Below, piece after piece: positions 12,743 to 33,900 of a DNA stretch of 64,000 nucleotides (its first letter is position 1; every line of letters begins with the position of its first letter). The stretch covers positions 51,071-115,070 of the forward strand of contig JBJHDA010000001.1 in the NCBI GenBank assembly GCA_050486305.1, given 5' to 3'. Both the position numbers and the translations under genes were made by a program. The stretch is from Candidatus Saccharimonadota bacterium (GTDB lineage Bacteria > Patescibacteriota > Saccharimonadia > Saccharimonadales > SLHW01). The notes under the pieces are model-generated. The model ran no database searches and was not told the DNA's origin. It was given only the letters and a program-made list of their open reading frames with translations.

Positions 12743-12894
12743 GTAGCTAGGCTTTAAAAAACAAAAACATAACCTTTCAAAAAAGCCGGCGAACAATAAA
12801 CCTTACTGCAGTTATTTCACTTAACGCTTTGACGGCGAAACAACCGCAGTAAAACAAACAAACAACTAAAACCAAAAAGGGCAGGCCGCCACTG

Positions 12895-15800: not shown

Positions 15801-18800
15801 TAACAACAGCGTAGCCGTCGGCAATGCTGCCACGGCTGCCGCTCAAGATGCAGTGGCACTTGGCCAGAACAGCTATGCTGGACCGGAAAGTATTGCTATA
15901 GGCCCGTCTGCACACACAGGGGTTAACGCTTGGGGCAATGTGGCCATTGGCCCCTGGAACACTATCAGTGATGACACTTTCGAGAATATCCTTATAGGTT
16001 ACGGAGGTTCAATTTCAAGCGACGAATCAATCGGAATCGGCTCGGGTGTTGATGTACAGGGCAGCTCCAGTATCGCTATGGGGTTATTTGCTTCGACTGG
16101 GAGTGATGCTTCTGACGGAATTGCTATAGGTCGCAGCTCATATGTTGATAATTCAGTGTCGATTGCACTTGGCCGAAACGCTGAGACATTCGGACTAAAT
16201 ACGATATCTATCGGTGCTTTCTCTGGTACGGGCTCGGGAGCTACCGACAGTATCGTTATTGGTGGCTCTGGCTGGGCGTCCGGCGCCCAAAGCGTCGCGC
16301 TTGGTCAGGCAGCTGAGGTGTTTGCAGATGGTTCCACCGCACTTGGAGCCTACAGTTCAGTACAAAGCACTGCAACGGACTCAATTGCAATCGGGAATAT
16401 GGCGCGAGTTGACTCTGCTAACACTTTTGTAGCAGGCTCTCGGGACGCCCCGATTAGCACAGTCTTTTTCGGCAATGGTGAAACTGCGACTTCCGGTATC
16501 ACCCCGACCAGTTACACCATCCAAGGAACAGGCGGCAATGGTACGGACATACAGGGTGGAAATATTTCTATAGCCGGTGGCCGCGGCACGGGAACTGGAC
16601 CAGGCGGTGATATTATCTTTGAGACCGCAGCTTCCAGCGGCTCCTCAGGTACCACGCAAAACGCACTCAACGAACGTTTGCGTATCACTAGCGAAGGTGA
16701 TGTTGGTATCGGTACAGCTAGTCCTAGCTATAGGTTAGATGTTCAGGGTGGGTCTGGTGCAATTGCCCGCTTCTCCGGCCGTGTCATCGGTGCTGATGCG
16801 GTGAACACAGACGAGTTCACCACGCTGAGCCAGCTCAACGCCGTCGAAGACGCAGCCGTCCAAGGTTCCGGCACCCAAGGCCAAGTCGGCTTCTTCAATT
16901 CCAACGGAGATCTCACTGGCAGCAACAGCTTGTACTGGGACAACTCTTCTGGTGCTCTCGGCATCGGCACCAACGATCCAAACTCCTTCACCCTCCAGGT
17001 CGCTGGCTCCATCGGCCCTGACGCCAATGACACCTATGACCTTGGCTCCAGCTCCCGTCGTTGGCGTGATCTCTACCTCGGCCCTGACAGCCTCAACATC
17101 GGGACGCACACCAACAACGCCACCATGAGCTATAACACCACCACCAACCGCTTCAACTTCTCTCATGGCATCAATGTCTCCGGTACCACTGTGGCCACCT
17201 CATTCTCTGGTGACGGTGCTAACCTCACCAACCTTGATGCCGACAACATCACCACCGGCACGCTCAGTGTCTCCCGCGGCGGTACCGGCGTGGACTCCTT
17301 CACCCAGTACGGTATTCCATACGGCAACAGCACCAGCAGCATGGGTGTCACCGCTGCTGGTGTCACCGGTGAGTGTCTGACTGGCAACACCGGCAATGCG
17401 CCATCTTGGGTGGACTGTTCCATTGTCGGCGAAGGCGCTGAACCGGGTGGCACCGCTGGCGGTGACCTCTCCGGCACCTACCCGAATCCAACCGTTGCCC
17501 GAATCAACGGTGCAGCGCTTGGTACTACCACGGCTGATGCCGGCCGTATTCTCATTGGCTCCGGCAGCCAGTGGATCTCCAGAAGCTTCTCTGGCGACCT
17601 CACCGTCAGCAGTACCGGTACGACCACTCTCGCTGACACCAGCGTCTCAGCTGGTGCCTATGGCTCTGGCACTCAAGTCGCTACCTTCACGGTTGACAGC
17701 AAGGGAAGACTGACCGCTGCCGGGCAAACGACGATTGACATCAACAACCTTGGCGCTTTCATGCAGGGCGGGAACAGCTTTGGTGAGATGGCAACGCTTG
17801 GGACGAACGATAACCAAGCCCTCAGATTTATCACCAACAATACGGAGCGAATGCGTATCTTGGCTAATGGGAATGTGGGGATAGGGACGGGGAGTCCGAG
17901 CGCACCTCTGGAGGTGTCAGGAGGCTCAGGTACGAGAGTGATAATCGGCAACCCTTCTGGTGGCCACCCCACTATGGTACTTGGACGGCAGAGCGGTCAG
18001 CCAAGCATACAGAGTAATTCTGGCTGGTTTATTGCTGATGGCGGGGGAGGCACGGGTAATGCTGGACTAAACTACTGGAGTAGCGGAGACGTTATTTTGG
18101 CTAATGGCGGTGGAAACGTTGGTATTGGGACCATAAGCCCTTCAGAACCCCTTGATGTTTCAATCAGCACGTCTACATATCAAGGAATCCGATTTTCTAA
18201 TGCCGAGGAGGATGTGCGCATAGCTGTCGGCGCCTCAGGTATTGGTTACCTTAGAACATCAAGCGACAGACTGTATATAGGGGATAGTAATGCTAATAGG
18301 CTAGTGATAAGGAGCGGAAACGTTGGCATTGGTACAACAAATCCACAAGATTTATTGCATATCAACGGGGGTGATATTCGCATGTCATCACCATCACCAA
18401 GCGTTAACCTGTTTGAGACTGATACAGGGAAGAGTTGGTTTGTTGTAGCTGATGATAATAAGTTTGATGTTCGGGAGGACGGGACATCAGGATCGAATGC
18501 AAGGTTTACTATACGCGATGGTAATGTTGGTATTAATAATATAAATCCTTCTTCTACTCTGACAGTTGGCGGCAACCTAAGGTTTACTGGAGGCACGCGT
18601 CACATATTGATACCTAATGATACTCGTCTTGAATTTCGTAGCTCTTCAGGTAATCAAATTTTAGATATTCGTGATGAGGTTGGCGGCTCAAATGATCCAG
18701 GGTTGCGCTCATTAGCCACCTATGATCGCACCACAACTGCTAGTGCCAATCTGCATATTACATCTGCCGCGAACTTTTCCCGCTCCACTTCTTCCGCTCG

Positions 18801-19785
18801 CTTCAAGACAAATGTCCAAACAATTCAGTCGATTGATTACAATAAGGTGTTAGATCTAAGGCCCGTAAAGTACAACTCTCTAGGCACGGACGATGACAGC
18901 AGTACCGTATTTTATGGCTATATCGCTGAAGAGGTGGCAAAAATTGATCGCCGACTTGTACAGTGGAGCGGCCCTGGCCCTAACGCGGTAGCAGAAGGGG
19001 TAATGTATGACAGGGTTAACGCCCTCTTGTTACCGGTCGTGCGTGACAACAGAGGAAGAATCACCAGACTAGAAGTTAGGGTCTCAGATCTTCAATCAAG
19101 AGCCAACTCCCTCCAATCTCAAATCAACACCCTCAAAAACACCAAAGCCACCAAAACAGCCCACAACAATCTAAAGAACCGTGTCACCCAAGCTGAAGCT
19201 ACCCTTGGTGATCTCGTTGTTGCCTCTAGTAGCTACCTCCAAAACGGTCAAAGCGCCACCTTCTCTAGTCTTAACGTCTCCGGTCAGACCACCCTCAAGA
19301 GCCTGACGGTCACCGGTAACGCAAGCATCCAAGGCAACTTGAGTGTCGGAGGGAAGCTAACCGTAGAAACAGCCACAGTAACAGGCAACCTGACAGTTGG
19401 CGGCAGAGTACTGAGTCAGGCGACTGAGGCGCCGGAGGTGACTACTGATCTGGATGTGTTCGGTGAATCGCTTCTAGCAGAGCTTGATGGTACAGATGTC
19501 GCAGGTACGATAACACTTACTACCATCGAAAGCGATGGCGCATCACTTTTTGCTGCGCTGGATCAGGAGGAGTATGTGCTCGCCAGAGTTACTTTTACGA
19601 GCGAATACGAGCTGTTGTCGCGCGTTTCCCTGACAGCAATGAATAGTGAGGCCTCTCACCTGCGCATTTACGCTGAGCGTACTGCAGACGGCTTCATAAT
19701 AAAAACTACTGACGCACCGGATGCCGACAAAGAATACGTGTTTGACTACATAATTGTCGGTGCAGAAGCCATGACCAGCAACTAA
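12895..19785 (+). CDS. Giant envelope fibre protein 1 (2296 aa): signal/anchor helix, conserved N-domain, beta-helix, YadA-head-like repeats, tail-fibre stalk repeats, S74 intramolecular chaperone domain, coiled coil
   Basis: Uninterrupted 6.9-kb ORF. Hydrophobic helix at aa 37-60 followed by TIYA|QS. The N-domain TLNFQARLL...RIRLTSVPYAFQ is shared with the next gene. PbH1-like repeats (NNSIVNNYLSGN, ISGNRI, ISNNVIQG, ISGNNIY, VTGNTI, ITGNLI) span 14238-15290. Gly/Ala-rich head-type repeats (SVAVGNAA..AVALGQNS..SIAIGPSA) span about 15765-16440. NVGIGT..P...L.V units recur. SSARFK lies at aa 1966-1971 in a Peptidase_S74-like context. Confidence 0.85.
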   Translation: MAHQKQKSPTGLSRRFSNYVLPRGLSAFLPKSFATRAIASLTLIAAFLFFSLASFYFLAPAFQTTIYAQSVPSTLNFQARLLTSSGAIVPDGTYNVEFKLYDQESGGTELWTETRTFDTDSSDLHLNVRSGYLSVYLGDKTPFPSSIDWNDQHYLTMNIGGTSVTPTWDGEMTPRIRLTSVPYAFQAEQANQALDSEQLQGRSASEFVQLSPSSQQSGGINISGTGQFGSNLSTQGNLTANGTLTIQGTSNSSIAGNLAIGHTNPQVALDVDGGVRVGSTSVNLSGVIRWTGSDLEVYDGSTWVSLTEGSGSGGSSVESLNTLTGALTLQGTTNQVTVSDDGTDTITISLPQDINTTAAVEFGSLTTSGNISAGGNLSTDGTLTVTQSSTFNGNVTVASGQSLRLTGSDTFPGSPEEGELYFRTDLNRLYIYADGQWTNLHDTGSDSRTATAIVAADDSPAQAKASADYVATGSSDQDTINDALTAAAGGYVYLHEGTYTVDDSIEIPNDTTLAGAGTGTVITIPDGHDANLEVITNVDTTTGTGVTIRDLKVDGNKDDQNSGTMDGIYLEGMGGGSGSSARQGAELTNLTIVDVRGRGILLDNSSNNSIVNNYLSGNDRFEQIILYPDSNNNIISGNRILAGQVGISISDSRHNVISNNVIQGGTWGIYLPAWGSSDYTTISGNNIYDHSIYGISVEAGDYVTVTGNTIRGTCAGCAGLIFEADYGIISSNTFNEVGSYEIYIHGSNNSITGNLIGDNSAISAQGIFISSFASDNYLSNNTLNGGEIDDVGTNTIYSNQIGNNGAIINRSANSTTMFQLQDASGDVLFNADTENMRIGIGTDSPAYALDVVTADDIAARFSGRVIGADAVNNDEFITLGQANTLYQTAGDYFLQGGNSFGSTATLGTTDNNALEFITNDITRLTIAADGSTVTLASGTGLFLQGNATLTNPGTGSGSEQFGLNASAQGNNSVAVGNAATAAAQDAVALGQNSYAGPESIAIGPSAHTGVNAWGNVAIGPWNTISDDTFENILIGYGGSISSDESIGIGSGVDVQGSSSIAMGLFASTGSDASDGIAIGRSSYVDNSVSIALGRNAETFGLNTISIGAFSGTGSGATDSIVIGGSGWASGAQSVALGQAAEVFADGSTALGAYSSVQSTATDSIAIGNMARVDSANTFVAGSRDAPISTVFFGNGETATSGITPTSYTIQGTGGNGTDIQGGNISIAGGRGTGTGPGGDIIFETAASSGSSGTTQNALNERLRITSEGDVGIGTASPSYRLDVQGGSGAIARFSGRVIGADAVNTDEFTTLSQLNAVEDAAVQGSGTQGQVGFFNSNGDLTGSNSLYWDNSSGALGIGTNDPNSFTLQVAGSIGPDANDTYDLGSSSRRWRDLYLGPDSLNIGTHTNNATMSYNTTTNRFNFSHGINVSGTTVATSFSGDGANLTNLDADNITTGTLSVSRGGTGVDSFTQYGIPYGNSTSSMGVTAAGVTGECLTGNTGNAPSWVDCSIVGEGAEPGGTAGGDLSGTYPNPTVARINGAALGTTTADAGRILIGSGSQWISRSFSGDLTVSSTGTTTLADTSVSAGAYGSGTQVATFTVDSKGRLTAAGQTTIDINNLGAFMQGGNSFGEMATLGTNDNQALRFITNNTERMRILANGNVGIGTGSPSAPLEVSGGSGTRVIIGNPSGGHPTMVLGRQSGQPSIQSNSGWFIADGGGGTGNAGLNYWSSGDVILANGGGNVGIGTISPSEPLDVSISTSTYQGIRFSNAEEDVRIAVGASGIGYLRTSSDRLYIGDSNANRLVIRSGNVGIGTTNPQDLLHINGGDIRMSSPSPSVNLFETDTGKSWFVVADDNKFDVREDGTSGSNARFTIRDGNVGINNINPSSTLTVGGNLRFTGGTRHILIPNDTRLEFRSSSGNQILDIRDEVGGSNDPGLRSLATYDRTTTASANLHITSAANFSRSTSSARFKTNVQTIQSIDYNKVLDLRPVKYNSLGTDDDSSTVFYGYIAEEVAKIDRRLVQWSGPGPNAVAEGVMYDRVNALLLPVVRDNRGRITRLEVRVSDLQSRANSLQSQINTLKNTKATKTAHNNLKNRVTQAEATLGDLVVASSSYLQNGQSATFSSLNVSGQTTLKSLTVTGNASIQGNLSVGGKLTVETATVTGNLTVGGRVLSQATEAPEVTTDLDVFGESLLAELDGTDVAGTITLTTIESDGASLFAALDQEEYVLARVTFTSEYELLSRVSLTAMNSEASHLRIYAERTADGFIIKTTDAPDADKEYVFDYIIVGAEAMTSN

Positions 19786-20303: not shown

Positions 20304-20332
20304 TTGAACCATATGCTATAAGGGGTCATAAT
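20304..20332 (+). promoter_or_regulatory. Candidate sigma-70-type promoter of giant gene 2
   Basis: TTGAAC, a 17-nt spacer, then CATAAT. It is paralogous in layout to 12714-12742 and implies a CA-rich leader of about 145 nt ending in caaacaaacaactaaa. Confidence 0.45.
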
Positions 20333-20483
20333 CCGTACTGTGTACCTGCTAAGCAGGGGGTCGTATCCCTGCAAGGCAACAAAAAGGAACACAAACACGA
20401 TTTTCTAAAACAAAAGTAATGCTCCGGCCGCGGATCATGAACAAAGAAAATCAAACAAACAACTAAATCAAACAAACACATAA

Positions 20484-23400
20484 ATGCCAAAGACAATCCC
20501 CAGCGTCGGCAGGCACGCTTATTTGCGTATTCCTGTAAAACTATGGCAACTACTGCAACATATTGTAGTGGGGTTGGTTCGTAGTAGCCTTTCTCAGAAC
20601 AAATCAAGTGCAGTAGGTGGTATTCTTGTTGCCTTCACACTGTTCCTGATGATTTTCGGAACGGTATTTTTGCATTTTCAGAAAACTATATACGCGAGCG
20701 ATACGCTTAACTTCCAAGCCCGTCTTCTGACCAGTAGCGGATCGGTAGCACCAGATGGGGTGTACAACGTTGAGTTCAAGCTGTATGACCAAGAGTCAGG
20801 TGGCACAGAGCTCTGGACCGAGACTCGATTGACGACTGATAGCAGTGACCTGCAAGTGACTGTACGCAGCGGTTACTTGAGTGTTTACCTCGGAGACAAG
20901 ACAGGTTTCCCAGGTAGTATCGACTGGAACGACCAGCTTTACCTGACCATGAACATCGGCGGTACGAGCGGTACTCCGGCATGGGATGGCGAGATGACAC
21001 CGAGGATACGGCTTACAAGCGTACCGTTTGCGTTCCAAGCAGACCGGGCAAACGTAGCGACTGAGCTTGAAGATCGGCAGGGCAGCAACACTGGTTCGCT
21101 TCGATTCGGCGCCTTAACGAACGATCGAAATATTCTTTTACCGAACTCTAGCGGTACGGTTGCGCTACTTCAGACTGCACAGACATTCTCCGGGGCAATA
21201 ACCTTCAGCGCTTCTGGTACCGGCTTAACCGTAACGAACAGTGCGATTATCGGGGGCAGCCTGACTGTTGATGGGGATACGCTTCGTGTAAATTCGTCTA
21301 CCAGCCGCGTCGGTATTGGCACGACCTCGCCTGACGCACGACTTACCGTAACTGGAGGAGCGGACGAGGTGCAGCTTAGAGTCGGGGCGAACGGCGTACA
21401 GACGAGCGATATCTTCCAGATTACCGATAGTACAAATAACGTCCTGGCTGGCTTCAACAGTCTCGGACAGCTCTTTTTGCGCGACTCCGGTTTCCGTGCA
21501 ACGCTTGAAACTGCCACGCTAACGGACGATCATTCCTACGTTCTCCCTGATGTTGGTGGTACATTTTGTTTGACGAGTGGTAACTGTTCTGGTGTTGGCG
21601 GCCAGGTTGGCGGAACTGGTACAGCTGGTCGGATTGCGATGTTTACCGCTGTCTCTGATATAGCTGATTCGTTCTTATCACAAGACGCAGACAGCATCAT
21701 CATTGATGCTGGCAGAAATCTAGCAGTTAACAACAACACGTTGTTCGTAGATGGTGACACTGGCAGAGTAGGCATCGGTACTACCTCACCTGAATACTTG
21801 CTGGATGTGCAAGACGGAACAGGCACAGTTGCGCGGTTTAGTGGTAGGGTAATCGGTGGCGAGGCAGTTAATTCTGACGAGTTCGTAACCCTTGCGCAGC
21901 TTGAAAGTGCGGTCGGTGCGACGGGAGCTTATGTGCTGGGCGGTAATGCGTTCGGTGAGCTTGCGGTTCTTGGTACCACCGACAATTATGGGCTCCAGTT
22001 TGTCACGAATGGGCAGGCTCGCCTTACCATAGCGAACAGCGGGGAAATCACTGCGGCCAACGCTCTAAGTGTGGACGGACAGCTTACGGTTACCAGCGGT
22101 GGAGCAAATATTACTGGCAATGTTGCTATTACCGGCGGACTGACGGTCACTGATGCTTCAACGTTTGAAAGTGCTGTGACGATAACTGACGGCGGACTGG
22201 ATGTTACAGGGCCAGTTATACTCCAGGGCAATACTGAAATAACCGATGCGAACACGTTCACCGTCGGCACGGGAGCTACCACGCTTGGTGGAACCCTCAG
22301 TGTCGACGGTATCGCTACCTTTAATAACGAAGTTATCATTGCTGCAGAGCAGTCTATTCGTTTGGTCGGCGGTGACACGGCTAGCCGGCCAGCGTCACCA
22401 GAGGAAGGCACCCTCTACTTCGACACACAGACGAACCGACTGCTTGTCTATGCAAATGGCAAGTGGCAGGCGGATCGTTCTATTGCCACCGTTATTGTTG
22501 CTCCCGAGGACGCTACTCAGGCCGCCAAAGACAGCGCGGACTTTGTTGTTCCTGACAGTGCCGATGATGCTCAGGATACGCTAAATGCTGCAATAGCGAC
22601 GCTGCCAAGCTCTGGCGGAACTGTTTATCTTCTCGAAGGTACCTACCTAATCTCTGGCTCTATTGAGCTCCCTGACAATACCACGTTAGCAGGCGCGGGT
22701 ACTGCGACTGTAATTAAGGTAAGAGACAGTCACGATGCAAGCTTCAATGCCCTCGAAAACGCTGACGCGACCGGTGGCAACAACAACATCACCCTTCGCG
22801 ATTTCGCGTTGGACGGTAATCGCAGCGAGCAAGCCGCCGGTGAGATGAATGGTATTTTCCTTGAAAACGTCGGTAGCGACACCGGTGGGGACGGGTTAAA
22901 CGGGATTACTATCACAAATGTTTCAGTTAATAACTTTAGCCATCGAGGGCTCACAGCAGTCAATTTGCGCAACAGTACGATAACCGGCTCTACCTTTAGA
23001 AACAACGACGACACTGGTATCGCACTCGGCGGTTCACTGGTGGGCCACAACAACATAGTCGATAACCTTGTGCAAGGTAACCGTGAAATGGGTATACACG
23101 TCGAAGGAGGTGGCTTTAACAACATATCAAACAACATGGTGCAGGGAAACCGCCGAACTGGTATTCGTGTGGACGCACCAGGCAACCTTGTAGCTGACAA
23201 CACAATCAAAGACAACGGCCTAACTTCACGCAGCCTTTATATAAATAGTGACGGTAATACTGTTACTGGCAATAGGGTACTTAACGGAAGTGCTATAGGT
23301 ATTGGGGTAGAAGGGGACAACAACCTTATATCAGGCAACACCGTGGCAGAAAATGCACTTCGAGGTATCGAGGTAAACGGCGACAGCAATACAGTTACTG

Positions 23401-26400
23401 CGAACACCGTTCGCGGCAATGGTGAGGCAGCTATATCTATTATCAGCTCTTCGAACGGTACGCTTATTACTTCGAACAGGATTTCCAACATAAATACTGA
23501 GCCGGCCATCGATATTGTCAGCGGTGCTGAAAATACTTACCTATCAAATAATACTTACAGTGGAAGTGCTGATCCATTCATTGTTGATGCAAGCAGTACA
23601 ACGATTTATGCAAATCAAATCGGCAACAATGGCGCTATCATCAACCGTACTGCTGACAGTGAAGCCATGTTCCAGCTCCAGGCAAGTAACGGCGACGTGC
23701 TCTTCAACGCCGACACCCAGAACATGCGCATAGGTATTGGTACTGACGCTCCGGAATATGCTCTTGATGTGGTTACGGCCGATGCTATCAGCGCCCGATT
23801 TAGCGGCCGTGTCATCGGTGCTGCTGCGGTGAATGCCAATGAATTCGTCACCCTCGCCCAGCTCGAATCTGCAACGGGTGTTGTTGGCAGCGCCTTCCTC
23901 CAGGGTGGTAACGCCTTCGATGAAGCGGCAGTGCTTGGTACGACTGATGCGTATGGCCTCAACCTTATAACTGACGGCACCACCAGACTTGCTATATCTG
24001 AAGTCGGCAACATAACGCTTGCCGATGACGTCCTTTATGTAGACGCAGTAAACGAAAGAGTACAAATTGGTTCAAGCGACAGTATTGACGCGCGACTGAG
24101 TGTGATCGGCGGTGCCGATCAGACTCAGTTGCTTGTCCGTGCTCACGCTACCCAAACTAGTCCGCTGGTGTTGCTCCAGGACAGTACGGGTGGTGAGCTA
24201 GCACGGCTGAACGCAACTGACAGTAGTTTGTACCTAGGATTTGAAGCTGGTGGGTCGACCGCTTCAGGAGATAACAATATAGGAATAGGCGCGAGCGCTC
24301 TAGGCGCTGTCTCGACGGGGGCAGCGAATACGACGCTGGGTTCTGGGGCGCTCGCATCTGTTTCTATAGGCAGCAACAACACGGCTGTTGGCTACAACGC
24401 TGGAAATCTCCTCACAGGTTCCAATAACATATTACTTGGATACGAGGCTGGCAGCAACATAGAAGACGGTAGCAACAACATTATTATTGGCTACAGCCTG
24501 GGCGCTTCAAGTCCGAACGTCAGCAATGAACTTAGAATAGGCGGCATACTACAAGGTAACCTTGATACGCTTGAGCTAACCTTTAACGGAGATGTCACAG
24601 TTACCGGCGGACTCACCGTTCAAGACGGGTTAGTTGTTACTGCTGGTGGCATAGATGTAACAGGCGACAGCACGATTGATGGCACACTTGATGTTACTGG
24701 TGAGGCAACGTTTGATGACGGTGTAACGATTACTGACGGTGGCATAGACGTAACAGGCGACAGCACGATCACTGGCAACCTTGGCCTAGACGGTAACTTC
24801 CAGATATTCGGTACCGGCACATTCACGAGCGGCACCGGTGCAGTTACCCTGCAAGGCGACACAGAAATAACCGGTGCAAATACCTTCACGGTTGGCACTG
24901 GTGCAACCACACTTGGCGGCAGTCTCCAGGTTGATGGCCAAACAACCTTCAACGATACCGTTACGGTAAACGCTGGTACTGGAATCGTCGCTAGCTTCTC
25001 AGGCAGGGTAGCTGGTCAAGATGCAGTCGAGCAAGACGAATTTACTACCCTCGCACAGCTGCAATCTGCCGTCGGTGCAGTCAACGCCTTCCTCCAAGGC
25101 GGTAACGCTTTCGATGAAGCAGCGGTGCTTGGTACGACTGACAACGAAGACCTACAGTTTATTACTAATAACGAAGTCCGACTTACGGTAACTGCCGGTG
25201 GAGACATAACAATAGCCAATGCTCTCGCAGTAGGTGGTGATCTCACGGTAACTGGAGTGGCAACCTTCGAGGACGGCCTTACGGTAACTGCTGGTGGCAT
25301 AGACGTCATTGGCGACAGTGCGATTACCGGTAATCTTGATATTACTGGCGACATCACAGCAACTGGCGACGCAGTCTTTGCTGCTGAGACTGATTCTACG
25401 ACAACCTTCCAGATTCAAAATGCAACTGGTGCCGCTCTCTTCAACGCCGACACCCAGAACATGCGCATAGGTATTGGTACTGACGCTCCGGAATATGCTC
25501 TTGATGTGGTTACGGCCGATGCTATCAGCGCCCGATTTAGCGGCCGTGTCATCGGTGCTGCTGCGGTGAATGCCAATGAATTCGTCACCCTCGCCCAGCT
25601 CGAATCTGCAACGGGTGTTGTTGGCAGCGCCTTCCTCCAGGGTGGTAACGCCTTCGATGAAGCGGCAGTGCTTGGTACGACTGATGCGTATGGCCTCAAC
25701 CTTATAACTGACGGCACCACCAGACTTGCTATATCTGAAGTCGGCAACATAACGCTTGCCGATGACGTCCTTTATGTAGACGCAGTAAACGAAAGAGTAC
25801 AAATTGGTTCAAGCGACAGTATTGACGCGCGACTGAGTGTGATCGGCGGTGCCGATCAGACTCAGTTGCTTGTCCGTGCTCACGCTACCCAAACTAGTCC
25901 GCTGGTGTTGCTCCAGGACAGTACGGGTGGTGAGCTAGCACGGCTGAACGCAACTGACAGTAGTTTGTACCTAGGATTTGAAGCTGGTGGGTCGACCGCT
26001 TCAGGAGATAACAATATAGGAATAGGCGCGAGCGCTCTAGGCGCTGTCTCGACGGGGGCAGCGAATACGACGCTGGGTTCTGGGGCGCTCGCATCTGTTT
26101 CTATAGGCAGCAACAACACGGCTGTTGGCTACAACGCTGGAAATCTCCTCACAGGTTCCAATAACATATTACTTGGATACGAGGCTGGCAGCAACATAGA
26201 AGACGGTAGCAACAACATTATTATTGGCTACAGCCTGGGCGCTTCAAGTCCGAACGTCAGCAATGAACTTAGAATAGGCGGCATACTACAAGGTAACCTT
26301 GATACGCTTGAGCTAACCTTTAACGGAGATGTCACAGTTACCGGCGGACTCACCGTTCAAGACGGGTTAGTTGTTACTGCTGGTGGCATAGATGTAACAG

Positions 26401-28439
26401 GCGACAGCACGATTGATGGCACACTTGATGTTACTGGTGAGGCAACGTTTGATGACGGTGTAACGATTACTGACGGTGGCATAGACGTAACAGGCGACAG
26501 CACGATCACTGGCAACCTTGGCCTAGACGGTAACTTCCAGATATTCGGTACCGGCACATTCACGAGCGGCACCGGTGCAGTTACCCTGCAAGGCGACACA
26601 GAAATAACCGGTGCAAATACCTTCACGGTTGGCACTGGTGCAACCACACTTGGCGGCAGTCTCCAGGTTGATGGCCAAACAACCTTCAACGATACCGTTA
26701 CGGTAAACGCTGGTACTGGAATCGTCGCTAGCTTCTCAGGCAGGGTAGCTGGTCAAGATGCAGTCGAGCAAGACGAATTTACTACCCTCGCACAGCTGCA
26801 ATCTGCCGTCGGTGCAGTCAACGCCTTCCTCCAAGGCGGTAACGCTTTCGATGAAGCAGCGGTGCTTGGTACGACTGACAACGAAGACCTACAGTTTATT
26901 ACTAATAACGAAGTCCGACTTACGGTAACTGCCGGTGGAGACATAACAATAGCCAATGCTCTCGCAGTAGGTGGTGATCTCACGGTAACTGGAGTGGCAA
27001 CCTTCGAGGACGGCCTTACGGTAACTGCTGGTGGGGCTGACATAACCGGTGATGTGTCAATTACTGGTGAACTAAGCGTGACTGGCCAAACGACATTTGA
27101 GGACGCTATCACCGTAAATGCTGGCACCGGTATTGTCGCCAGCTTCTCCGGACGTGTTTCCGGCGCGGATGCAGTCGAGCAAGACGAATTTACTACCCTC
27201 GCACAATTGCAATCTGCCGTCGGTGCAGTCAACGCCTTCCTCCAAGGCGGTAACGCTTTTGATGAAGCAGCAGTGCTTGGTACAACTGACAACTACAGTC
27301 TCCAATTCATTACCAACAATGAAGCCCGTCTTGCTATCGCCAATGACGGTGATGTTGCTATCGCCAACGCCCTGAGTGTCGGTGGACAGCTCACTGTCGT
27401 TTCTGGCGGTGCCGACATCACTGGAGATGTCCTCATAACAGGCGAGCTAACCGTTACAGGTGTGACAACCTTTACCGATATAATATTTGTCGATGCTGGC
27501 ACCGGTATTGTCGCCAGCTTCTCCGGACGTGTTTCCGGCGCGGATGCAGTCGAGCAAGACGAATTTGTGACCCTTGGTCAGGTTAGCAGCGCTACGGCTA
27601 ATGTCTTCACCCAACAGGGCAATAACTTTGGCGAACTTGCCGTCCTCGGTACCACTGACGACTACGGCCTCCAATTCATTACCAACAACGAAGTTCGGCT
27701 TTCCATTAACCATGATGGATCACTATCGAGTGTACAAATAGGTGACGGCTCCGACACAAGTGGGTCATCAACACTTCTGACGCTTGACCGTTCTGCGGGA
27801 CCACCTGTAGCCGACGACGATGCTTATCTTGGCTCAATGTACTATGACACCACAATCGGACGAATCCAGTGTTACGAAGCTGGCGGATGGGGCTCTTGTG
27901 GCTCTCCACCAGATAACATCGTTAATCTTGACCCAGAGTATGCCGGCGCTGTTCTCAACGGCAGTGGTATCGGCACCATGACTGCAGACTTCTGTGCGAA
28001 TGAATCGGGCGTGCTTTCAGTTAACTCCTCATTATGTGAAGAGGGTGAAGCGCTTAACTTCTACCGCTGGGCATCACCTCAGGCAACACAGCAAACCTAC
28101 GGTATCTACATTACATACCAGCTGCCTTCAACCTTTGACGGATTTGCCAGCGATGAAACCGTACAATTGACAGCTCGCCGTGACAACAGTAATGCCGAGG
28201 TAAGTTACGAAATGTTCCGTAACCAGGACGGTCAGATTACCCAGTGTGGCACTGAAACAGTTGTAACGACAGTCGACAATGTGTGGCAAACCGTCGGAAT
28301 CAATGGCGATGAGGCAACTGACTGTGGCTTTACCGCAGCATCTGCTAATGGCTACGTCATATTCAAGATAAATATGAAGGCAAGTAATAACGCGAATGCT
28401 TATTCAAGCACATTAACTTTCACGACGACTGGTCGATAG
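20484..28439 (+). CDS. Giant envelope fibre protein 2 (2651 aa): signal/anchor helix, conserved N-domain, beta-helix, seven FSGRV stalk modules including a large internal duplication, Cys-containing C-terminal tip domain
   Basis: Uninterrupted 8-kb ORF. Hydrophobic helix at aa 44-64 followed by TIYA|SD. The N-domain is roughly 85 percent identical to giant 1 by eye. Beta-helix repeats (ITGSTFRNN, VDNLVQGN, ISNNMVQGN, VADNTIKDN, VTGNRVLNG, ISGNTVAEN, VTANTVRGN, ITSNRISN) span about 22480-23610. A 579-aa period duplication is present. Confidence 0.85.
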   Translation: MPKTIPSVGRHAYLRIPVKLWQLLQHIVVGLVRSSLSQNKSSAVGGILVAFTLFLMIFGTVFLHFQKTIYASDTLNFQARLLTSSGSVAPDGVYNVEFKLYDQESGGTELWTETRLTTDSSDLQVTVRSGYLSVYLGDKTGFPGSIDWNDQLYLTMNIGGTSGTPAWDGEMTPRIRLTSVPFAFQADRANVATELEDRQGSNTGSLRFGALTNDRNILLPNSSGTVALLQTAQTFSGAITFSASGTGLTVTNSAIIGGSLTVDGDTLRVNSSTSRVGIGTTSPDARLTVTGGADEVQLRVGANGVQTSDIFQITDSTNNVLAGFNSLGQLFLRDSGFRATLETATLTDDHSYVLPDVGGTFCLTSGNCSGVGGQVGGTGTAGRIAMFTAVSDIADSFLSQDADSIIIDAGRNLAVNNNTLFVDGDTGRVGIGTTSPEYLLDVQDGTGTVARFSGRVIGGEAVNSDEFVTLAQLESAVGATGAYVLGGNAFGELAVLGTTDNYGLQFVTNGQARLTIANSGEITAANALSVDGQLTVTSGGANITGNVAITGGLTVTDASTFESAVTITDGGLDVTGPVILQGNTEITDANTFTVGTGATTLGGTLSVDGIATFNNEVIIAAEQSIRLVGGDTASRPASPEEGTLYFDTQTNRLLVYANGKWQADRSIATVIVAPEDATQAAKDSADFVVPDSADDAQDTLNAAIATLPSSGGTVYLLEGTYLISGSIELPDNTTLAGAGTATVIKVRDSHDASFNALENADATGGNNNITLRDFALDGNRSEQAAGEMNGIFLENVGSDTGGDGLNGITITNVSVNNFSHRGLTAVNLRNSTITGSTFRNNDDTGIALGGSLVGHNNIVDNLVQGNREMGIHVEGGGFNNISNNMVQGNRRTGIRVDAPGNLVADNTIKDNGLTSRSLYINSDGNTVTGNRVLNGSAIGIGVEGDNNLISGNTVAENALRGIEVNGDSNTVTANTVRGNGEAAISIISSSNGTLITSNRISNINTEPAIDIVSGAENTYLSNNTYSGSADPFIVDASSTTIYANQIGNNGAIINRTADSEAMFQLQASNGDVLFNADTQNMRIGIGTDAPEYALDVVTADAISARFSGRVIGAAAVNANEFVTLAQLESATGVVGSAFLQGGNAFDEAAVLGTTDAYGLNLITDGTTRLAISEVGNITLADDVLYVDAVNERVQIGSSDSIDARLSVIGGADQTQLLVRAHATQTSPLVLLQDSTGGELARLNATDSSLYLGFEAGGSTASGDNNIGIGASALGAVSTGAANTTLGSGALASVSIGSNNTAVGYNAGNLLTGSNNILLGYEAGSNIEDGSNNIIIGYSLGASSPNVSNELRIGGILQGNLDTLELTFNGDVTVTGGLTVQDGLVVTAGGIDVTGDSTIDGTLDVTGEATFDDGVTITDGGIDVTGDSTITGNLGLDGNFQIFGTGTFTSGTGAVTLQGDTEITGANTFTVGTGATTLGGSLQVDGQTTFNDTVTVNAGTGIVASFSGRVAGQDAVEQDEFTTLAQLQSAVGAVNAFLQGGNAFDEAAVLGTTDNEDLQFITNNEVRLTVTAGGDITIANALAVGGDLTVTGVATFEDGLTVTAGGIDVIGDSAITGNLDITGDITATGDAVFAAETDSTTTFQIQNATGAALFNADTQNMRIGIGTDAPEYALDVVTADAISARFSGRVIGAAAVNANEFVTLAQLESATGVVGSAFLQGGNAFDEAAVLGTTDAYGLNLITDGTTRLAISEVGNITLADDVLYVDAVNERVQIGSSDSIDARLSVIGGADQTQLLVRAHATQTSPLVLLQDSTGGELARLNATDSSLYLGFEAGGSTASGDNNIGIGASALGAVSTGAANTTLGSGALASVSIGSNNTAVGYNAGNLLTGSNNILLGYEAGSNIEDGSNNIIIGYSLGASSPNVSNELRIGGILQGNLDTLELTFNGDVTVTGGLTVQDGLVVTAGGIDVTGDSTIDGTLDVTGEATFDDGVTITDGGIDVTGDSTITGNLGLDGNFQIFGTGTFTSGTGAVTLQGDTEITGANTFTVGTGATTLGGSLQVDGQTTFNDTVTVNAGTGIVASFSGRVAGQDAVEQDEFTTLAQLQSAVGAVNAFLQGGNAFDEAAVLGTTDNEDLQFITNNEVRLTVTAGGDITIANALAVGGDLTVTGVATFEDGLTVTAGGADITGDVSITGELSVTGQTTFEDAITVNAGTGIVASFSGRVSGADAVEQDEFTTLAQLQSAVGAVNAFLQGGNAFDEAAVLGTTDNYSLQFITNNEARLAIANDGDVAIANALSVGGQLTVVSGGADITGDVLITGELTVTGVTTFTDIIFVDAGTGIVASFSGRVSGADAVEQDEFVTLGQVSSATANVFTQQGNNFGELAVLGTTDDYGLQFITNNEVRLSINHDGSLSSVQIGDGSDTSGSSTLLTLDRSAGPPVADDDAYLGSMYYDTTIGRIQCYEAGGWGSCGSPPDNIVNLDPEYAGAVLNGSGIGTMTADFCANESGVLSVNSSLCEEGEALNFYRWASPQATQQTYGIYITYQLPSTFDGFASDETVQLTARRDNSNAEVSYEMFRNQDGQITQCGTETVVTTVDNVWQTVGINGDEATDCGFTAASANGYVIFKINMKASNNANAYSSTLTFTTTGR
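23700..25297. repeat. Direct repeat copy 1 (1598 bp) inside giant gene 2
   Basis: Identical to 25437-27034 at every position I compared, including both boundaries and several internal 60-nt lines. The offset is 1737 bp (3 x 579), so it is in frame. Confidence 0.9.
25437..27034. repeat. Direct repeat copy 2 (1598 bp) inside giant gene 2
   Basis: See copy 1. The copies are separated by a unique 139-bp segment (25298-25436). Identity breaks at 23699/25436 and at 25298/27035. Confidence 0.9.
27118..27191. repeat. 74-bp exact direct repeat, copy 1 (FSGRVSGADAVEQDEF module core)
   Basis: atgctggcaccggtattgtcgccagcttctccggacgtgtttccggcgcggatgcagtcgagcaagacgaattt recurs exactly at 27493-27566. The offset is 375 bp (125 aa). 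Confidence 0.85.
27493..27566. repeat. 74-bp exact direct repeat, copy 2
   Basis: See 27118-27191. Confidence 0.85.
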
Positions 28440-28458
28440 GGGTGAGTAGGATACAGTC

Positions 28459-31400
28459 ATGATAGAATACAGACATAAGAGGAAACAAAAAAGGGAAGCA
28501 AGTACCGTCGTGAAGTTCGCAAAACGATTCAACTCCACAGACAACAACCAGCAGTTTGCACAAAACTGGCTCACTCGTGCGTGGACTGGCTTACGCCACC
28601 CTATACGCTCACTCAAGGCGTCTACCCGTCGGCGCCGTTTTGTCACCTGGGGGCTAGTCCTCTTGGCTGTAGTTGTTCTTGGCTTGACATCGGCATTCAT
28701 ATATATGCGGTTGCAGGCTACTAACTATGATATAACTGCTTTTGAGGGAGTGTTGCTCGATGAGCCGATTGATTTGTATGGGGAGCGACTTGTATTTGAT
28801 GAGGACCGCGAAAAGTATGTCTATAACGATAATTATCTGGCAAATGTTGATGTAGCCGGGCAGGTGTTTGCGCCGAAAGTTACCGCTTATTTCCATGATA
28901 GTCCCTCGGATGGCGTAGAGGTTGTTGACCCAATCAATGATGTTTCGATTACCTTAAAACCATTGTTTCGCAGCGGTTCTCCCCAAAAGAATTTAAATCG
29001 AATCGTGTATCCACTGGCTGGCAACCGTGCAACCAAGATCTACACCCTCAAGGCAAACTCTATAAAAGAAGATATAATCCTGCATGAGTATCAGGGGAAC
29101 GAGCTGAGTTTTGCATATGAGCTAGATCTGCCAGATGGAACTGAGGCTCGATTGGAGTCCGATGGTTCAGTTGGGGTGTATGGAGTGGATAGCATCTTCC
29201 TGGGTGATATTGCGACCGGAAGCGAAGAGGACGAGAGACTTGTAGAAAGTGTACGGGAGAACGGTGAGCGAACTGAGCTCCTGTTTCATCTTCCAGCCCC
29301 GTTTGTAATTGAGGAAAACAAACGAAGCAGTGAAGCAGATGCTTGGTTTACACTCGAGGATGACATCCTAACACTTCATGCTGATAATCTAGATAAAGGT
29401 AATTATCCGCTCAGCATTGACCCAAGCGTGTATGTTGAGTCAGCTATGCAGTTCATGCGGGGCAACAATGAAACAAATGTCTACTTCGATGTAGATTATG
29501 ATTTGATACGGAAAGCAGGGTTTACGGGGGCTAGCTTTGACTCCTGGTCTCCGACACTGGAGTTAAACCAAGGTGTATGGGGTGCAGGTGCGGTAGCAGC
29601 TGGAGGGTATGTGTACTCCGTGGGCGGGAATGATGGTACGAACAATATAAGTAATGTCTACTGGTCAAGATTAAACACCGTCAACTACACGATGATGAGT
29701 CCGAACCCTGGCGATGGCGCCTGCACGAACTGGTGTACTAATGAGAATTATGATTTACCTGAGGCTCTGACCGGACTATCGTTGGTCGCATATAACGGTT
29801 ACTTATACGCCATTGGTGGAGAAGATGATTCGGGTGAGCGGTCTGATCGTGTCTATATCGCAAAACTGGGCAATAATGGTGAGCCGAGATTGTGGCACCC
29901 CACAAGTACTGATGAGAGCGAGTGGGTGTACTGGTATACAGATGCGGATTTTGATTTAAGTTCCGAGCGTAGTTATCACGCGGCTGTCGCTTACGAAAAT
30001 CGATTATATGTATTAGGTGGGCAAACTGATACAGATACAACTGGCATAACTACAGTAGAATTTGTCGACATACAGCCTAACGGTACCCTTAGTAGCTGGT
30101 CGGATACTGGAATGACACCGCTGCCCCCAGGCGCAGGACGACAGCATCTATCAGCGGAAGTCTATAATGATCGAATATATGTGATAGGTGGATCAGAGGG
30201 CTCGATTACAACCGACAACATCGTGGACAGTGTTTTTTACGCTAAGCTAGAAGATGGCACTATGAGCGATTGGGAAGAGACTAGCTCGTTATCATCCCCT
30301 AGTATGGCTTGGGGAGGCGGCTTTACTGCTGTATGGGGAGGACACATTTATCACTCAGGAGGGTGTGCTGAGGTAATTGAAGAAGACCTAGGTGAAGGTA
30401 TAGAGGAGGGTGCAGCGTGCACTGATTTTACCCAAGCTACACAGTTTTCATCCATCAATTCCGACGGCAGTCTTGCGGCTTGGCATACGGTTAGTGACGG
30501 AGACATTCAGCGAATAGGGCATAACTTGGTTGGCTGGAATGGCGTGCTATATCAGGTGGGAGGATGCTCGGCTCAAGATGATTCAGGTAATTGTACTACA
30601 ATTCACAATGAATCGAACTACGCTCCTATTAATCAGGCAGGCGATATATCTGAATTAAGCTTGTCTAGTGCTAGCGGCAGCGGCACATGTGACGGAGCTG
30701 AACCTTATGACTGCCATTTGCCACCGACTGGAAACGGATCAGGTGAGGGTGGCCAGAAGTTGACCGCCTCGACCATATTAAACGGTCATTTGTACGTAAT
30801 AGGTGGCTGCATAGACACTGACTGCAACAACGCGTCTGGCAATGTCTCATACACACAGGTCGCCACCGATGGCACTTTAGCGATGCCGGAGTCATGTGAC
30901 GGAACCTATTATGGGGCGTGGTGTGTTGATAGTTCAAATCAAGTCAATGGCAACCAAGGTGTAGCAGCCGCCAGCATCACCGTATTTAACAATGTTATAT
31001 ACGTAGTAGGCGGAACGGATGGAAACTCAAACACCAACACCATCTTCCGTAATACTGTGGAGAGCGACGGTAGTTTAAGCGGCTCATGGATATCTCAGAA
31101 TCTTTCAGGAGGAGCTGGAGTAGGAGCAACTAGCCTGTCCCATACTTTTGCTTATGCCAGGGCTATTCCTGGATCTAGTTCTATCCCTGGCAATCTGTAT
31201 ATATTTGGTGGCTGTAGCGACACTTCAGGCTCTGAGTGTGTGGGCGGAAGCTACGAAGAGGTAGTATATAAATGTGATATTGGAAATGATGGCGCGATAG
31301 ATAATTGCGATAGCACGGGCCAGCTACAGATAAATGCTGCTAGCGGAGCTTCTGACTCTGGACTGGCACTGCATGGAGGGGCAGTTTTCAGTGATTATAT

Positions 31401-33900
31401 ATATTTAGTGGGGGGTGCTGCTCCTGGCCAAAGCAACTTAAATACGGTTAGATATGCAATGTTTGATGAAAATAACGACGTAGTGGCGGTAAGTGGCGGT
31501 TCTTGGGTAGAATCTACTTCCTTGTTGAATAATGAGGTTGCTGGTGGTGATAGCTTTGCCCTTAATGGCTACTTGTATTCTGTAGGTGGTTACAGTGACA
31601 GTGCTGTGCTGGATAGTATGGAGTTTTCTAAAATCAATCCGAATGACGGTAGTCTTGATAATTTCGCGACATCCAGTACAAGTATAGATTCTAGATGGGG
31701 GCAGAGCATTGTTGTGTCTAACTCTAGGGCGTATATATTGGGTGGGTGTGGCAGTGGAGCTGGGTCCGGCAGCTGCTCCCAGCTGGAAGAGACAGTACGT
31801 ACTGTGCAGATTCATAATAACGCAAGTGGCTCCCCAGCCAATTATTCCGCAGCCGATAATCTTTTCAGTACTGACCGAATAGCGGCAGGCTCGGCAATTT
31901 ATGACGGGTACATATATATAGCAGGTGGATGCACAGACAGTGCAAGCTGTATAAATCTAACAACAGACGTCCAGTATGCTCCTCTGGATGAACAGGGTAA
32001 TATTGGTAGCTGGTCGACTGCGACGGCTGACCTACCTGCAGACAGGGCTTGGGGCAGGCTAGAGGTAGCAGGAGGTACACTCTACTATATCGGTGGACAG
32101 GATGGGTCTGGTAACGCATCTGCGGACATATACTATGCCATTCCATCCTCGGGCGATGTAAGTAACTGGAATATAGTCAGTAACGGTTTACCGGAAGCTA
32201 GAACTCAGCACAGCACCGCCGTTTGGGACGATAGGATATACGTAACTGGCGGAGAAGATGGAAACGGGGTACTACAAGACAGTGTGTATGTAAGTCCGCA
32301 GCTAAGTTCAGGAGGTGATATAACCAATAGCTGGACTTCATCTACTGTATTCGAAGGAGCAAGACGAGGCCATACAGCAGCTGTTTATGCTAACAATATC
32401 TATGTAATAGGCGGTTACGATGGCGATAATTATTTAAGTGATGTCCAGTATGCCTCTATAAATACTGATGGGTCGATAGGAGACTGGGCCTCTACTACTA
32501 GTCTGCCTATGCCCGTTCAACAAGGTGACGGTTTTGCGGCTGATGGATATATATACTTATTTGGCGGTAGGTTTGGCGACCAAGAAGAAAACTGCCTCAA
32601 TAGTACTTTTGTAGCGCCCATCAGCGCTAATACTTCAGAGGGTGAAGGCGGTAATCCAACAGGACTAGGCAGTTGGTTTGAGTCTGCATCACATTTTGGG
32701 GGAGAGAGGTTCGGTGTATCCGCTTCTTATCACGAAGGGAAAACATACGTGCTCGGAGGCGGATGTGCTGAACTGCTTAACGTTTCAGAGTTGTTCTCAA
32801 GCCCTGGTTTACATACTTTTACACCCCCTGAAGAAACCACCCAGGTAATAATAGAAGCATGGGGCGGCGGTGGTGGCGGTGGTCAAGGTGAAGCTGGCAG
32901 TGGAAATGCAGCCGGAGCCGGTGGTGGCGGTGGTGGGTACTCTCGTCATACTATGCCTATCAGTCAGGGCAACTACGATGTCTATGTAGGTGCTGGAGGC
33001 TCTTCTGGGAATGATGGAGAGGGGTCCTGGTTTGATGATTTGACAACCGCTTTTGCTGCTGGCGGCGGCGGCGCCGGTTGGGGACCTAGTTTTGGAGCCG
33101 GTGGTAGCGCAAATATCGGTAGTGACGCCACATTTGATGGTGGAGACGGTGGGACTGGGCATGACGCTGCTCAACCACCACTTCGTACTGGTGGTGGAGG
33201 TGGTGGCTCTGCATTCTTCGATGCTGATGGTGGCGACGGTCAGGCGGGAGATAGAGGGACTGGTGGAGCTGGGGGTATAGGTACTGGAGATGGTGGCGAC
33301 GGAAACTCTGGTGCCGGCACTGGTGGCTCAGGATCGATTCCTGGTGCCGGCGGCGGCGGCGGCGGATATGAGGGAACAGGAGGCAGCGGTGCTACAGGTA
33401 GGGTCATCGTTTTTTACGATGAGTGGAGCGAGCTCGTATTGTCTGGCGCCAACAGGGTGTCAGTAGGCTCTCTTGAGACCCAGCCACAGACTGCAAACTA
33501 TTCGTATATAGTTGATACCGATACCGATGTATTCCCTTATGCATGGTTGATGAACGGCACGAATGACACAAATACTTTACCGTGGCGGATGGAATACCTA
33601 TCATCTACATCTGTTGCAGTCACTTGGGGTCAGAACACTGATTACGAAGTCGTGACTTTTGGCCAACCAGAAACTTATGTTCCTCTCGACGACTCAGGTG
33701 TAGATACTAACTTCGCTAGATATTATTATTTCTCGGTATCAGTTGACAGCTCCACTATGTTCGGATTTCCATACGATGTATCAAGAGGTGCGACAGTTAC
33801 TGATATGACATTGTATTTCACTTCGAATCCGGGTCAACGCTTGCGCCACGGCAAAACGTTCACCGGCGGTGAACAACAGTCGTTTGATACTCCGTTTTAG
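28459..33900 (+). CDS. Giant envelope protein 3 (1813 aa): signal/anchor helix, unknown N-domain, 18 Kelch-like blades, polyglycine (Gly_rich-type) domain, unknown C-domain
   Basis: Starts 20 nt after the giant 2 stop. Hydrophobic helix FVTWGLVLLAVVVLGLTSAFIYM. I counted 18 occurrences of the blade motif x-[LIVAT]-Y-x-x-G-G, from YVYSVGG to KTYVLGG. The Gly-rich block HTFTPPEETTQVIIEAWGGGGGGG...GRVIVFYDEW spans 32809-33426. Confidence 0.85.
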   Translation: MIEYRHKRKQKREASTVVKFAKRFNSTDNNQQFAQNWLTRAWTGLRHPIRSLKASTRRRRFVTWGLVLLAVVVLGLTSAFIYMRLQATNYDITAFEGVLLDEPIDLYGERLVFDEDREKYVYNDNYLANVDVAGQVFAPKVTAYFHDSPSDGVEVVDPINDVSITLKPLFRSGSPQKNLNRIVYPLAGNRATKIYTLKANSIKEDIILHEYQGNELSFAYELDLPDGTEARLESDGSVGVYGVDSIFLGDIATGSEEDERLVESVRENGERTELLFHLPAPFVIEENKRSSEADAWFTLEDDILTLHADNLDKGNYPLSIDPSVYVESAMQFMRGNNETNVYFDVDYDLIRKAGFTGASFDSWSPTLELNQGVWGAGAVAAGGYVYSVGGNDGTNNISNVYWSRLNTVNYTMMSPNPGDGACTNWCTNENYDLPEALTGLSLVAYNGYLYAIGGEDDSGERSDRVYIAKLGNNGEPRLWHPTSTDESEWVYWYTDADFDLSSERSYHAAVAYENRLYVLGGQTDTDTTGITTVEFVDIQPNGTLSSWSDTGMTPLPPGAGRQHLSAEVYNDRIYVIGGSEGSITTDNIVDSVFYAKLEDGTMSDWEETSSLSSPSMAWGGGFTAVWGGHIYHSGGCAEVIEEDLGEGIEEGAACTDFTQATQFSSINSDGSLAAWHTVSDGDIQRIGHNLVGWNGVLYQVGGCSAQDDSGNCTTIHNESNYAPINQAGDISELSLSSASGSGTCDGAEPYDCHLPPTGNGSGEGGQKLTASTILNGHLYVIGGCIDTDCNNASGNVSYTQVATDGTLAMPESCDGTYYGAWCVDSSNQVNGNQGVAAASITVFNNVIYVVGGTDGNSNTNTIFRNTVESDGSLSGSWISQNLSGGAGVGATSLSHTFAYARAIPGSSSIPGNLYIFGGCSDTSGSECVGGSYEEVVYKCDIGNDGAIDNCDSTGQLQINAASGASDSGLALHGGAVFSDYIYLVGGAAPGQSNLNTVRYAMFDENNDVVAVSGGSWVESTSLLNNEVAGGDSFALNGYLYSVGGYSDSAVLDSMEFSKINPNDGSLDNFATSSTSIDSRWGQSIVVSNSRAYILGGCGSGAGSGSCSQLEETVRTVQIHNNASGSPANYSAADNLFSTDRIAAGSAIYDGYIYIAGGCTDSASCINLTTDVQYAPLDEQGNIGSWSTATADLPADRAWGRLEVAGGTLYYIGGQDGSGNASADIYYAIPSSGDVSNWNIVSNGLPEARTQHSTAVWDDRIYVTGGEDGNGVLQDSVYVSPQLSSGGDITNSWTSSTVFEGARRGHTAAVYANNIYVIGGYDGDNYLSDVQYASINTDGSIGDWASTTSLPMPVQQGDGFAADGYIYLFGGRFGDQEENCLNSTFVAPISANTSEGEGGNPTGLGSWFESASHFGGERFGVSASYHEGKTYVLGGGCAELLNVSELFSSPGLHTFTPPEETTQVIIEAWGGGGGGGQGEAGSGNAAGAGGGGGGYSRHTMPISQGNYDVYVGAGGSSGNDGEGSWFDDLTTAFAAGGGGAGWGPSFGAGGSANIGSDATFDGGDGGTGHDAAQPPLRTGGGGGGSAFFDADGGDGQAGDRGTGGAGGIGTGDGGDGNSGAGTGGSGSIPGAGGGGGGYEGTGGSGATGRVIVFYDEWSELVLSGANRVSVGSLETQPQTANYSYIVDTDTDVFPYAWLMNGTNDTNTLPWRMEYLSSTSVAVTWGQNTDYEVVTFGQPETYVPLDDSGVDTNFARYYYFSVSVDSSTMFGFPYDVSRGATVTDMTLYFTSNPGQRLRHGKTFTGGEQQSFDTPF

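Follow-up and report, generated by a model that had tools for sequence, protein, structure and literature searches.

Intragenic macrosatellites are a feature of several fibrillar adhesin genes, such as those for Rib/alpha-C, SasG/Aap and Esp. A further example is CmbA of Limosilactobacillus reuteri, a beads-on-a-string surface protein whose folded stalk modules are encoded by long, identical, in-frame DNA repeats. Two strains carry 11 and 8 identical repeats of ~290 bp, the repeats caused assembly errors, and the cmbA repeat counts of published genomes were found to be wrong; PCR across long identical repeats also yields chimeric products (PMC13339910). A comparable repeat lies in a giant gene of a Candidatus Saccharimonadota bacterium (Patescibacteriota; GenBank assembly GCA_050486305.1), within a stretch of 64,000 nucleotides (nt) of contig JBJHDA010000001.1 (positions 51,071 to 115,070 of the forward strand), the whole of which was analysed and is referred to below as the window. 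The gene, giant 2, is the middle one of three consecutive giant genes and encodes a modular protein in which a block of 1598 nt occurs twice without a single difference. The repeat is probably real, and probably represents a very recent copy of a cassette of three modules (knob, block Y, knob; K-Y-K), made within the gene by non-reciprocal exchange between older paralogous modules.

The differences from the CmbA-type macrosatellites are considerable. Giant 2 has two copies only, of a 1598 nt unit made of three heterogeneous modules, and these are split by a unique spacer of 139 nt (spacer U) and not arranged head-to-tail. Its anchor is a predicted N-terminal membrane segment instead of an LPXTG motif. 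The difference in repeat number was seen between strains of L. reuteri; for giant 2, known from one assembly, no polymorphism of copy number has been observed.

The classic bacterial cases of concerted evolution by gene conversion are tufA/tufB and the rRNA operons. At the present locus the process would differ in taking place within a single open reading frame (ORF), between structural modules, and in being coupled to a change in module number. The encoded protein may be compared with the mosaic adhesive trimer (MAT) fibres of Bdellovibrio bacteriovorus, the products of several paralogous phage-tail-fibre-like genes of differing lengths and chimeric architecture, with beta-helical stalk modules and, in some, an S74 chaperone (PMC10769870). 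Points of likeness to these, and to phage tail fibres, are the presence of paralogous fibre genes in a bacterium living on bacteria, the S74 domain of the neighbouring gene (giant 1), and the matches of block Y and of the C-terminal domain of giant 2 to phage tail fibre and tail spike proteins. On the other hand, the sequence relation is weak (E ~1e-4 to 1e-9, partial), the giant proteins are 2–4 times longer, and their C-terminal domain is conserved across the family, not diversified.

A scan of the whole window at an offset of 1737 nt showed that the two copies (Table 1) match at 1598 of 1598 positions, in a single unbroken run that ends exactly at the limits of the repeat. A sequence-only reading of the window had reported the same limits after comparing both boundaries and several internal lines, and the full comparison revealed no mismatch that it had missed; the unique 139 nt separator and the in-frame period of 1737 nt (579 codons) were likewise as it described. 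Position 23700 is in frame with the giant 2 start at 20484, and the reading frame is unbroken through every repeat junction. In the protein, residues 1073–1605 recur verbatim as residues 1652–2184, with a linker of 46 residues between them, the repeated block running from LFNADTQNMRIGIGT to GLTVTAGG. The block has 532 codons and 533 residues, the final residue being encoded by a split codon (GGC or GGG) that gives Gly in either copy. Two pairs of minus-strand ORFs (24143–24382 and 25880–26119; 24620–24952 and 26357–26689) are present as previously listed and are a trivial echo of the repeat. The window contains no other direct repeat that reaches 200 nt with an identity of 85% or more, and its second-longest exact repeat is 74 nt. 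A chance origin of the 1598 nt repeat is excluded.

The order of modules in giant 2 is beta-helix, (K2-Y-K3), U, (K4-Y-K5), K6, K7 and C-terminal domain, the parentheses enclosing the two copies of the repeat. Upstream of the beta-helix are a hydrophobic N-terminal segment at residues ~43–65, for which comparable segments exist in giants 1 and 3, then a domain in common with giant 1, and then the first knob, K1. The six further knobs are at residues 1106, 1505, 1685, 2084, 2221 and 2346, and show the motif FSGRV..(A)V...EF.TL.QL...GGNAF.E.AVLGTTD.

Table 1. Features of the giant-gene region, in window coordinates.
Feature	Position	Length	Strand	Description and basis
Giant gene 1	12895..19785	2296 aa	+	Paralogous fibre gene; Pfam Beta_helix, YadA_head, Peptidase_S74
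Giant gene 2	20484..28439	2651 aa	+	Putative modular surface fibre, contains the repeat; ORF and translation; P0001 is the identical protein on record
Predicted N-terminal membrane anchor	20610..20678		+	AVGGILVAFTLFLMIFGTVFLHF; read from the translation, without a topology predictor
Right-handed beta-helix (pectate-lyase-like)	22548..23492	aa ~689–1003	+	Pfam Beta_helix E=1.3e-19, NosD E=1.2e-15, Pect-lyase_RHGA_epim E=2.3e-13
Repeat copy 1	23700..25297	1598 nt	+	Cassette of knob K2, YadA-like block Y and knob K3; exact match to copy 2
Block Y, copy 1	24006..24797		+	YadA-head-like, phage tail-spike-like; PHROG and tblastn matches
Spacer U	25298..25436	139 nt	+	Unique; IDVIGDSAITGNLDITGDITATGDAVFAAETDSTTTFQIQNATGAA
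Repeat copy 2	25437..27034	1598 nt	+	Cassette K4-Y-K5, in the context conserved in the orthologue
Block Y, copy 2	25743..26534		+	As for copy 1
Knobs K6 and K7	27108..27803		+	Older paralogous knobs downstream of the repeat; 63–72% nt identity to paralogues
Conserved C-terminal domain	27717..28436	~240 aa	+	Predicted beta-sandwich, fold like that of a carbohydrate-binding module (CBM); homologue alignment, AlphaFold2, Foldseek
Giant gene 3	28459..33900	1813 aa	+	Kelch propeller and Gly_rich_2; Pfam; syntenic in L028

With no difference in 1598 nt, the divergence between the copies is below ~0.2% at the 95% bound (3/1598). The other knobs of giant 2 are old paralogues, with 55–72% nt identity and a third-codon-position identity of 0.23–0.51, and this supports the earlier view that zero divergence reflects a very recent duplication or gene conversion. 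Shorter exact patches are found among these older modules. Knobs K3 and K5 share two with K6, of 38 nt (25020–25057 and 27168–27205) and 52 nt (25060–25111 and 27208–27259), and K6 shares one of 74 nt with K7 (27118–27191 and 27493–27566). At a background third-position identity of at most 0.5, a run of 24 consecutive identical codons has a chance of ~6e-8, and all three patches appear to be small conversion tracts.

The syntenic orthologue of giant 2 in the closest relative (P0002, locus L028) is a protein of 1959 aa with 77% aa identity to giant 2. Its modules are in the order ...U-K-Y-U-K-K-K-C-terminal domain, giving one Y block against two in giant 2, and window positions 26757–30971 are collinear with L028 14198–18412 at 75.7% identity. 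The single Y of P0002 is 83% identical at the nt level to both Y blocks of the window, and its U-K region aligns to 25252–25712. Copy 2, with U upstream and ADITGDVSITG downstream, matches the context seen in the orthologue, so that copy 2 most likely occupies the ancestral placement and copy 1 is the addition. Given that the orthologue carries a single Y block in the context of copy 2, the extra cassette would have arisen after the two lineages split. Single-copy DNA differs by ~25% between them, and on that scale the copying event would be younger than ~1% of the separation from the orthologue. In more distant relatives (L002–L006 and others; 1643–3273 aa) the N- and C-terminal domains are retained and the stalks differ entirely; since the knob modules are not shared, these relatives cannot be used to date the duplication. 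No sequence from the same species was present in the genome, metagenome and protein collections searched, where the closest relative was 77% identical. Exact look-ups of the giant protein and of one neighbouring protein among public assemblies found no record, and a metagenome scan with the repeat region returned 179 pattern matches and no relatives.

P0002 has an in-frame repeat of its own, of 513 nt at 93% identity with a period of 1314 nt (L028 12668–13180 and 13982–14494). It is a mosaic, in which ~190 exact nt are followed by ~95 nt at ~60% identity and then by ~203 exact nt, and it stops after ...TAGG, where by homology the repeat of the window has its right border. The identity between the corresponding knob paralogues is 100% within the window and 93% within L028, and only 73–74% between the two genomes. 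Being closer within than between genomes, they appear from these comparisons to bear the signature of concerted evolution, and the mosaic tracts and the abrupt borders at the edge of homology are further points of likeness to the classic cases.

At both borders of the window repeat, identity falls abruptly from 100% to ~55–60% and then to random. The weak similarity extends over ~40 nt on the left (FQLQASNGDV versus FQIQNATGAA) and ~70 nt on the right (IDVIGDSAITG versus ADITGDVSITG). Spacer U is ~60% identical to the first ~70 nt after copy 2 and ~55% identical to the last ~40 nt before copy 1, and is identical to neither outer flank, which gives two novel junctions. A plain tandem duplication of 1737 nt as the sole event, by unequal crossing-over or replication slippage, would fit with the direct orientation, the in-frame period and the adjoining copies. 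The residual flank similarities, which together span roughly the length of the 139 nt spacer, could mark the eroded margins of an old tandem duplication of 1737 nt with a homogenised interior. However, a recent tandem duplication predicts one novel junction and identity over 1737 nt, of which only 1598 nt are identical here, with 139 nt diverged by 40–45% beside a tract with no divergence; and an old one is contradicted by the orthologue, where block Y occurs once. Linker motifs common to all modules of the family (FQ.Q..G.. and.D.TGD..ITG.L) would equally give rise to the weak similarity of the flanks, and a linker homologous to U is present twice in P0002. Simple tandem duplication was rejected on the geometry of the junctions, and we consider it improbable.

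Non-reciprocal copying of the cassette would proceed by homologous recombination, either as gene conversion or as repair of a double-strand gap from the sister chromosome or the same molecule. Pairing may have taken place within a knob head (LFNADT...RIGIGT) on the left and where a knob shaft finishes (...TVTAGG) on the right. Cassette K4-Y-K5, in its ancestral context, would then have been copied over a module formerly situated between the beta-helix domain and linker U, and pairing at both ends would have carried the intervening Y block and second knob to the new position. As a result, up to 579 residues of stalk would have been added or replaced between the beta-helix and the C-terminal CBM-like domain, with the frame kept. 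By way of RecA, the 1.6 kb of perfect homology now present could lead to the gain of more 579-codon units or to the loss of one. Saccharibacteria are naturally competent epibionts that recombine incoming DNA (PMC10633639). Import of an already rearranged allele is therefore possible, but import alone would not explain why the two copies are identical.

Several points weigh against this interpretation. Both the copy number and the perfect, as opposed to near, identity of the copies are taken from one assembly. The border homology is weak (55–60%) and a poor substrate for RecA, so end-pairing may be rare or another mechanism may be needed. The recipient module that preceded the conversion was not observed, and its former existence is suggested by a diverged head remnant (FQLQ...) of ~40 nt. 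The structure prediction bearing on the fibre geometry of the cassette is of low confidence: the AlphaFold2 (AF2) monomer model of the 579-residue unit, built from a shallow alignment of 18 rows, is beta-rich with a predicted local distance difference test (pLDDT) value of 63, and a Foldseek search with it gave no significant structural match (best E=0.84), the matches to MAT and phage fibres being not significant.

Internal repeats were sought in 120 homologues by a k-mer/offset scan (at least 60 aa at ~80% identity or more), and were present in 56. Several are exact over 138–639 aa, for example in P0010 (138 aa), P0003 (377 aa) and P0026 (639 aa and 403 aa). At the DNA level, every period in the examples from relatives (L029, L030) is divisible by three. 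The orthologue of giant 1 in the closest relative (L029) carries an exact in-frame repeat of 1132 nt (2234–3365 and 3692–4823, period 1458 nt) with equally sharp borders. This protein is 4400 aa long, against 2296 aa for giant 1, and its gene also contains four copies of a 164 nt unit. The giant gene for P0026 (L030; 3651 aa), from the same Joint Genome Institute (JGI) sample, has at least three copies of 1110 nt within 2084–7995 that differ by single-nucleotide polymorphisms (SNPs). The upstream and downstream flanks of the P0026 gene also repeat each other (1–704 and 12205–12914), which suggests tandem giant paralogues. The recurrence of in-frame block repeats in the family, and the wide variation in stalk length and composition among relatives, agree with the proposal made in the sequence-only reading that the repeat may provide for RecA-mediated expansion and contraction and for surface variation.

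The repeats of relatives also bear on whether the one in giant 2 is an artefact of assembly or polishing, in which a longer repeat-spacer array collapsed to two copies, or similar but non-identical blocks were made identical by bubble-popping or by polishing with multi-mapped reads. Perfect identity over 1.6 kb is the expected product of building or polishing a consensus from near-identical repeats, neither reads nor a second assembly of the species were found, and repeats in adhesin genes are a documented source of error even in 'closed' genomes (PMC6868369; PMC13339910). Against this, the 139 nt spacer is joined to the end of the repeat on one side and to its start on the other, and a linear genome with these and the outer junctions must logically contain two or more copies. 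The frame is intact across all junctions, and an independent metagenome sample has members of the same family with comparable in-frame repeats, exact or nearly so. The array of one relative retains single SNPs between its copies, showing that such repeats are not purely products of assembly. An artefact is an unlikely explanation, and would bear on a copy number above two and on how exact the identity is.

Several of the giant genes in two genomes contain exact tracts with sharp edges, and one border is shared between species, as might be expected of a dedicated system of programmed variation acting on the fibre stalk, such as cassette-type antigenic variation, a diversity-generating retroelement or a site-specific shufflon. 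However, the shared border is the end of homology between paralogous modules and can be explained without a specific site. There are no significant inverted repeats in the region from 12 to 34.5 kb (one pair of 27 nt at 78% identity was seen), and Pfam scans of most window ORFs of at least 150 aa detected no reverse transcriptase, recombinase, invertase or integrase. The differences in the diverged patch of the P0002 repeat are not adenine-specific. A programmed system is, on this evidence, very improbable. More speculatively, and with little probability in our estimate, the stalk modules of giant fibres may undergo cassette-like gene conversion unusually often in Saccharibacteria, which would use it as a quasi-programmed means of changing length and module order. 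If so, host or glycan reach would be varied in this way, and the process would have left its traces as the sharp-edged exact blocks of several genes and genomes.

The domain and fold evidence supports the earlier description of giant 2 as the gene of a giant, fibre-type surface protein. The Beta_helix and Pect-lyase matches exceed their gathering scores and lie outside the repeat; the same region also matches a PHROG pre-neck appendage protein (E=7e-13), and the only match of the whole protein in a sequence search of the PDB was the beta-helix of a mannuronan epimerase (E=0.006). Block Y shows weak but repeated matches to PHROG virion structural protein (E=5e-9) and tail spike (E=2e-7) families, and tblastn aligned it with tail spike and tail fibre genes of phages at 30–41% identity. 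The repeat unit had no Pfam match at E<=1 and a single, spurious match in the PDB sequence search (E=0.17).

The Y blocks resemble proteins of the YadA family in having sequence like the GxxAG/NNxxxG head repeats, at residues ~1298–1340 and ~1877–1920; giant 1 reaches the Pfam threshold for YadA_head, and some homologues are annotated by JGI as trimeric autotransporter adhesins. Giant 2 differs from that family in its N-terminal anchor and CBM-like C-terminus, in the place of a C-terminal YadA anchor, and in having no YadA_head match at threshold. Its classification as a trimeric autotransporter was rejected, as neither YadA_anchor nor YadA_head was matched (Pfam; E<=1 on the repeat unit) and the C-terminus models as a CBM-like fold.

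Of the 120 best homologues (1500–4400 aa), at least 75 end in the C-terminal domain, with 47–69% identity in the sample aligned. This domain has conserved cysteines and is shared by homologues with otherwise unrelated stalks. The AF2 model has a mean pLDDT of 74, with most 10-residue blocks at 80–97 over the last ~160 aa, and Foldseek matched it in the PDB to CBM61 (E=5e-6), to CBM4/22/27 and to chains of phage tail fibres and tailspikes (Klebsiella Kp7 gp52, K2-2 TSP). A distal tip would not be expected to be so conserved, and the domain might rather serve in assembly or anchoring. Taken together, giant 2 would be a membrane-anchored, phage-tail-fibre-like surface fibre, with a polysaccharide-active or -binding beta-helix and a glycan-binding distal domain. 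From the domain matches and models we infer its surface location, assembly as a trimeric fibre, glycan binding and any effect on host binding.

The three giant genes lie in an ordinary stretch of chromosome, which includes yqeY, adk, map, ftsA, ftsZ, nrdR, a class II ribonucleotide reductase (RNR) gene, ileS and parA/parB, as well as genes for signal peptidase, LytR and HtrA, prfA/prmC, rpsB, tsf, frr, uppS, rseP and several aminoacyl-tRNA synthetases. The window had no match in scans for Rfam families and tRNAs. Relatives of the giant 2 protein come almost exclusively from metagenome-assembled genomes of Saccharibacteria or Patescibacteria. The order rplU, giant 1, giant 2, Kelch giant (giant 3) and a protein of ~250 aa is kept in the closest relative (JGI contig; L028, L029). 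Giants 1 and 2 share their N-terminal domain and knob modules (repeat families D4, D6 and D8); Peptidase_S74 is matched by Pfam in giant 1 and not in giant 2. Directly upstream of both starts is an A/C-rich leader, AAAACAAACAAACAACTAAA (12848–12878 and 20445–20475, 84% alike, family D11), which may serve both genes as a signal for translation or transcription. The interval upstream of giant 2 (19786–20483) is an AT-rich, non-coding stretch of 700 nt, long for so compact a genome, and has no Rfam match. GC skew is strongly negative in the first part of giant 1 (-0.21 at 12–14 kb and -0.07 at 14–16 kb) and positive in the rest of the window, and the stalk regions of the giants are GC-richer (0.50–0.57 versus ~0.47). 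Two ORFs of ~250 aa have no Pfam match (33964–34716 and 39003–39761); the first is conserved beside the Kelch giant in the related contig, where it encodes 253 aa. An ORF of 319 aa (54170–55129), situated amid housekeeping genes, matches the heliorhodopsin family (Pfam E=1.5e-10).

The repeat in giant 2 is an ordinary and recurrent feature of the giant fibre gene family, which would not surprise a specialist and reveals no new mechanism. Its practical value is modest: it flags a site for validation by long reads and a possible length-variable fibre in this lineage. Copies of this kind are easily mis-assembled, so that caution is due with the gene lengths and numbers of modules given in databases. 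In the small genomes of Saccharibacteria and other Patescibacteria, no part is less well understood than the giant surface proteins, which are prime candidates for a role in attachment to the host. The locus shows that the stalks of these giant fibres evolve via in-frame copying of whole multi-module cassettes.

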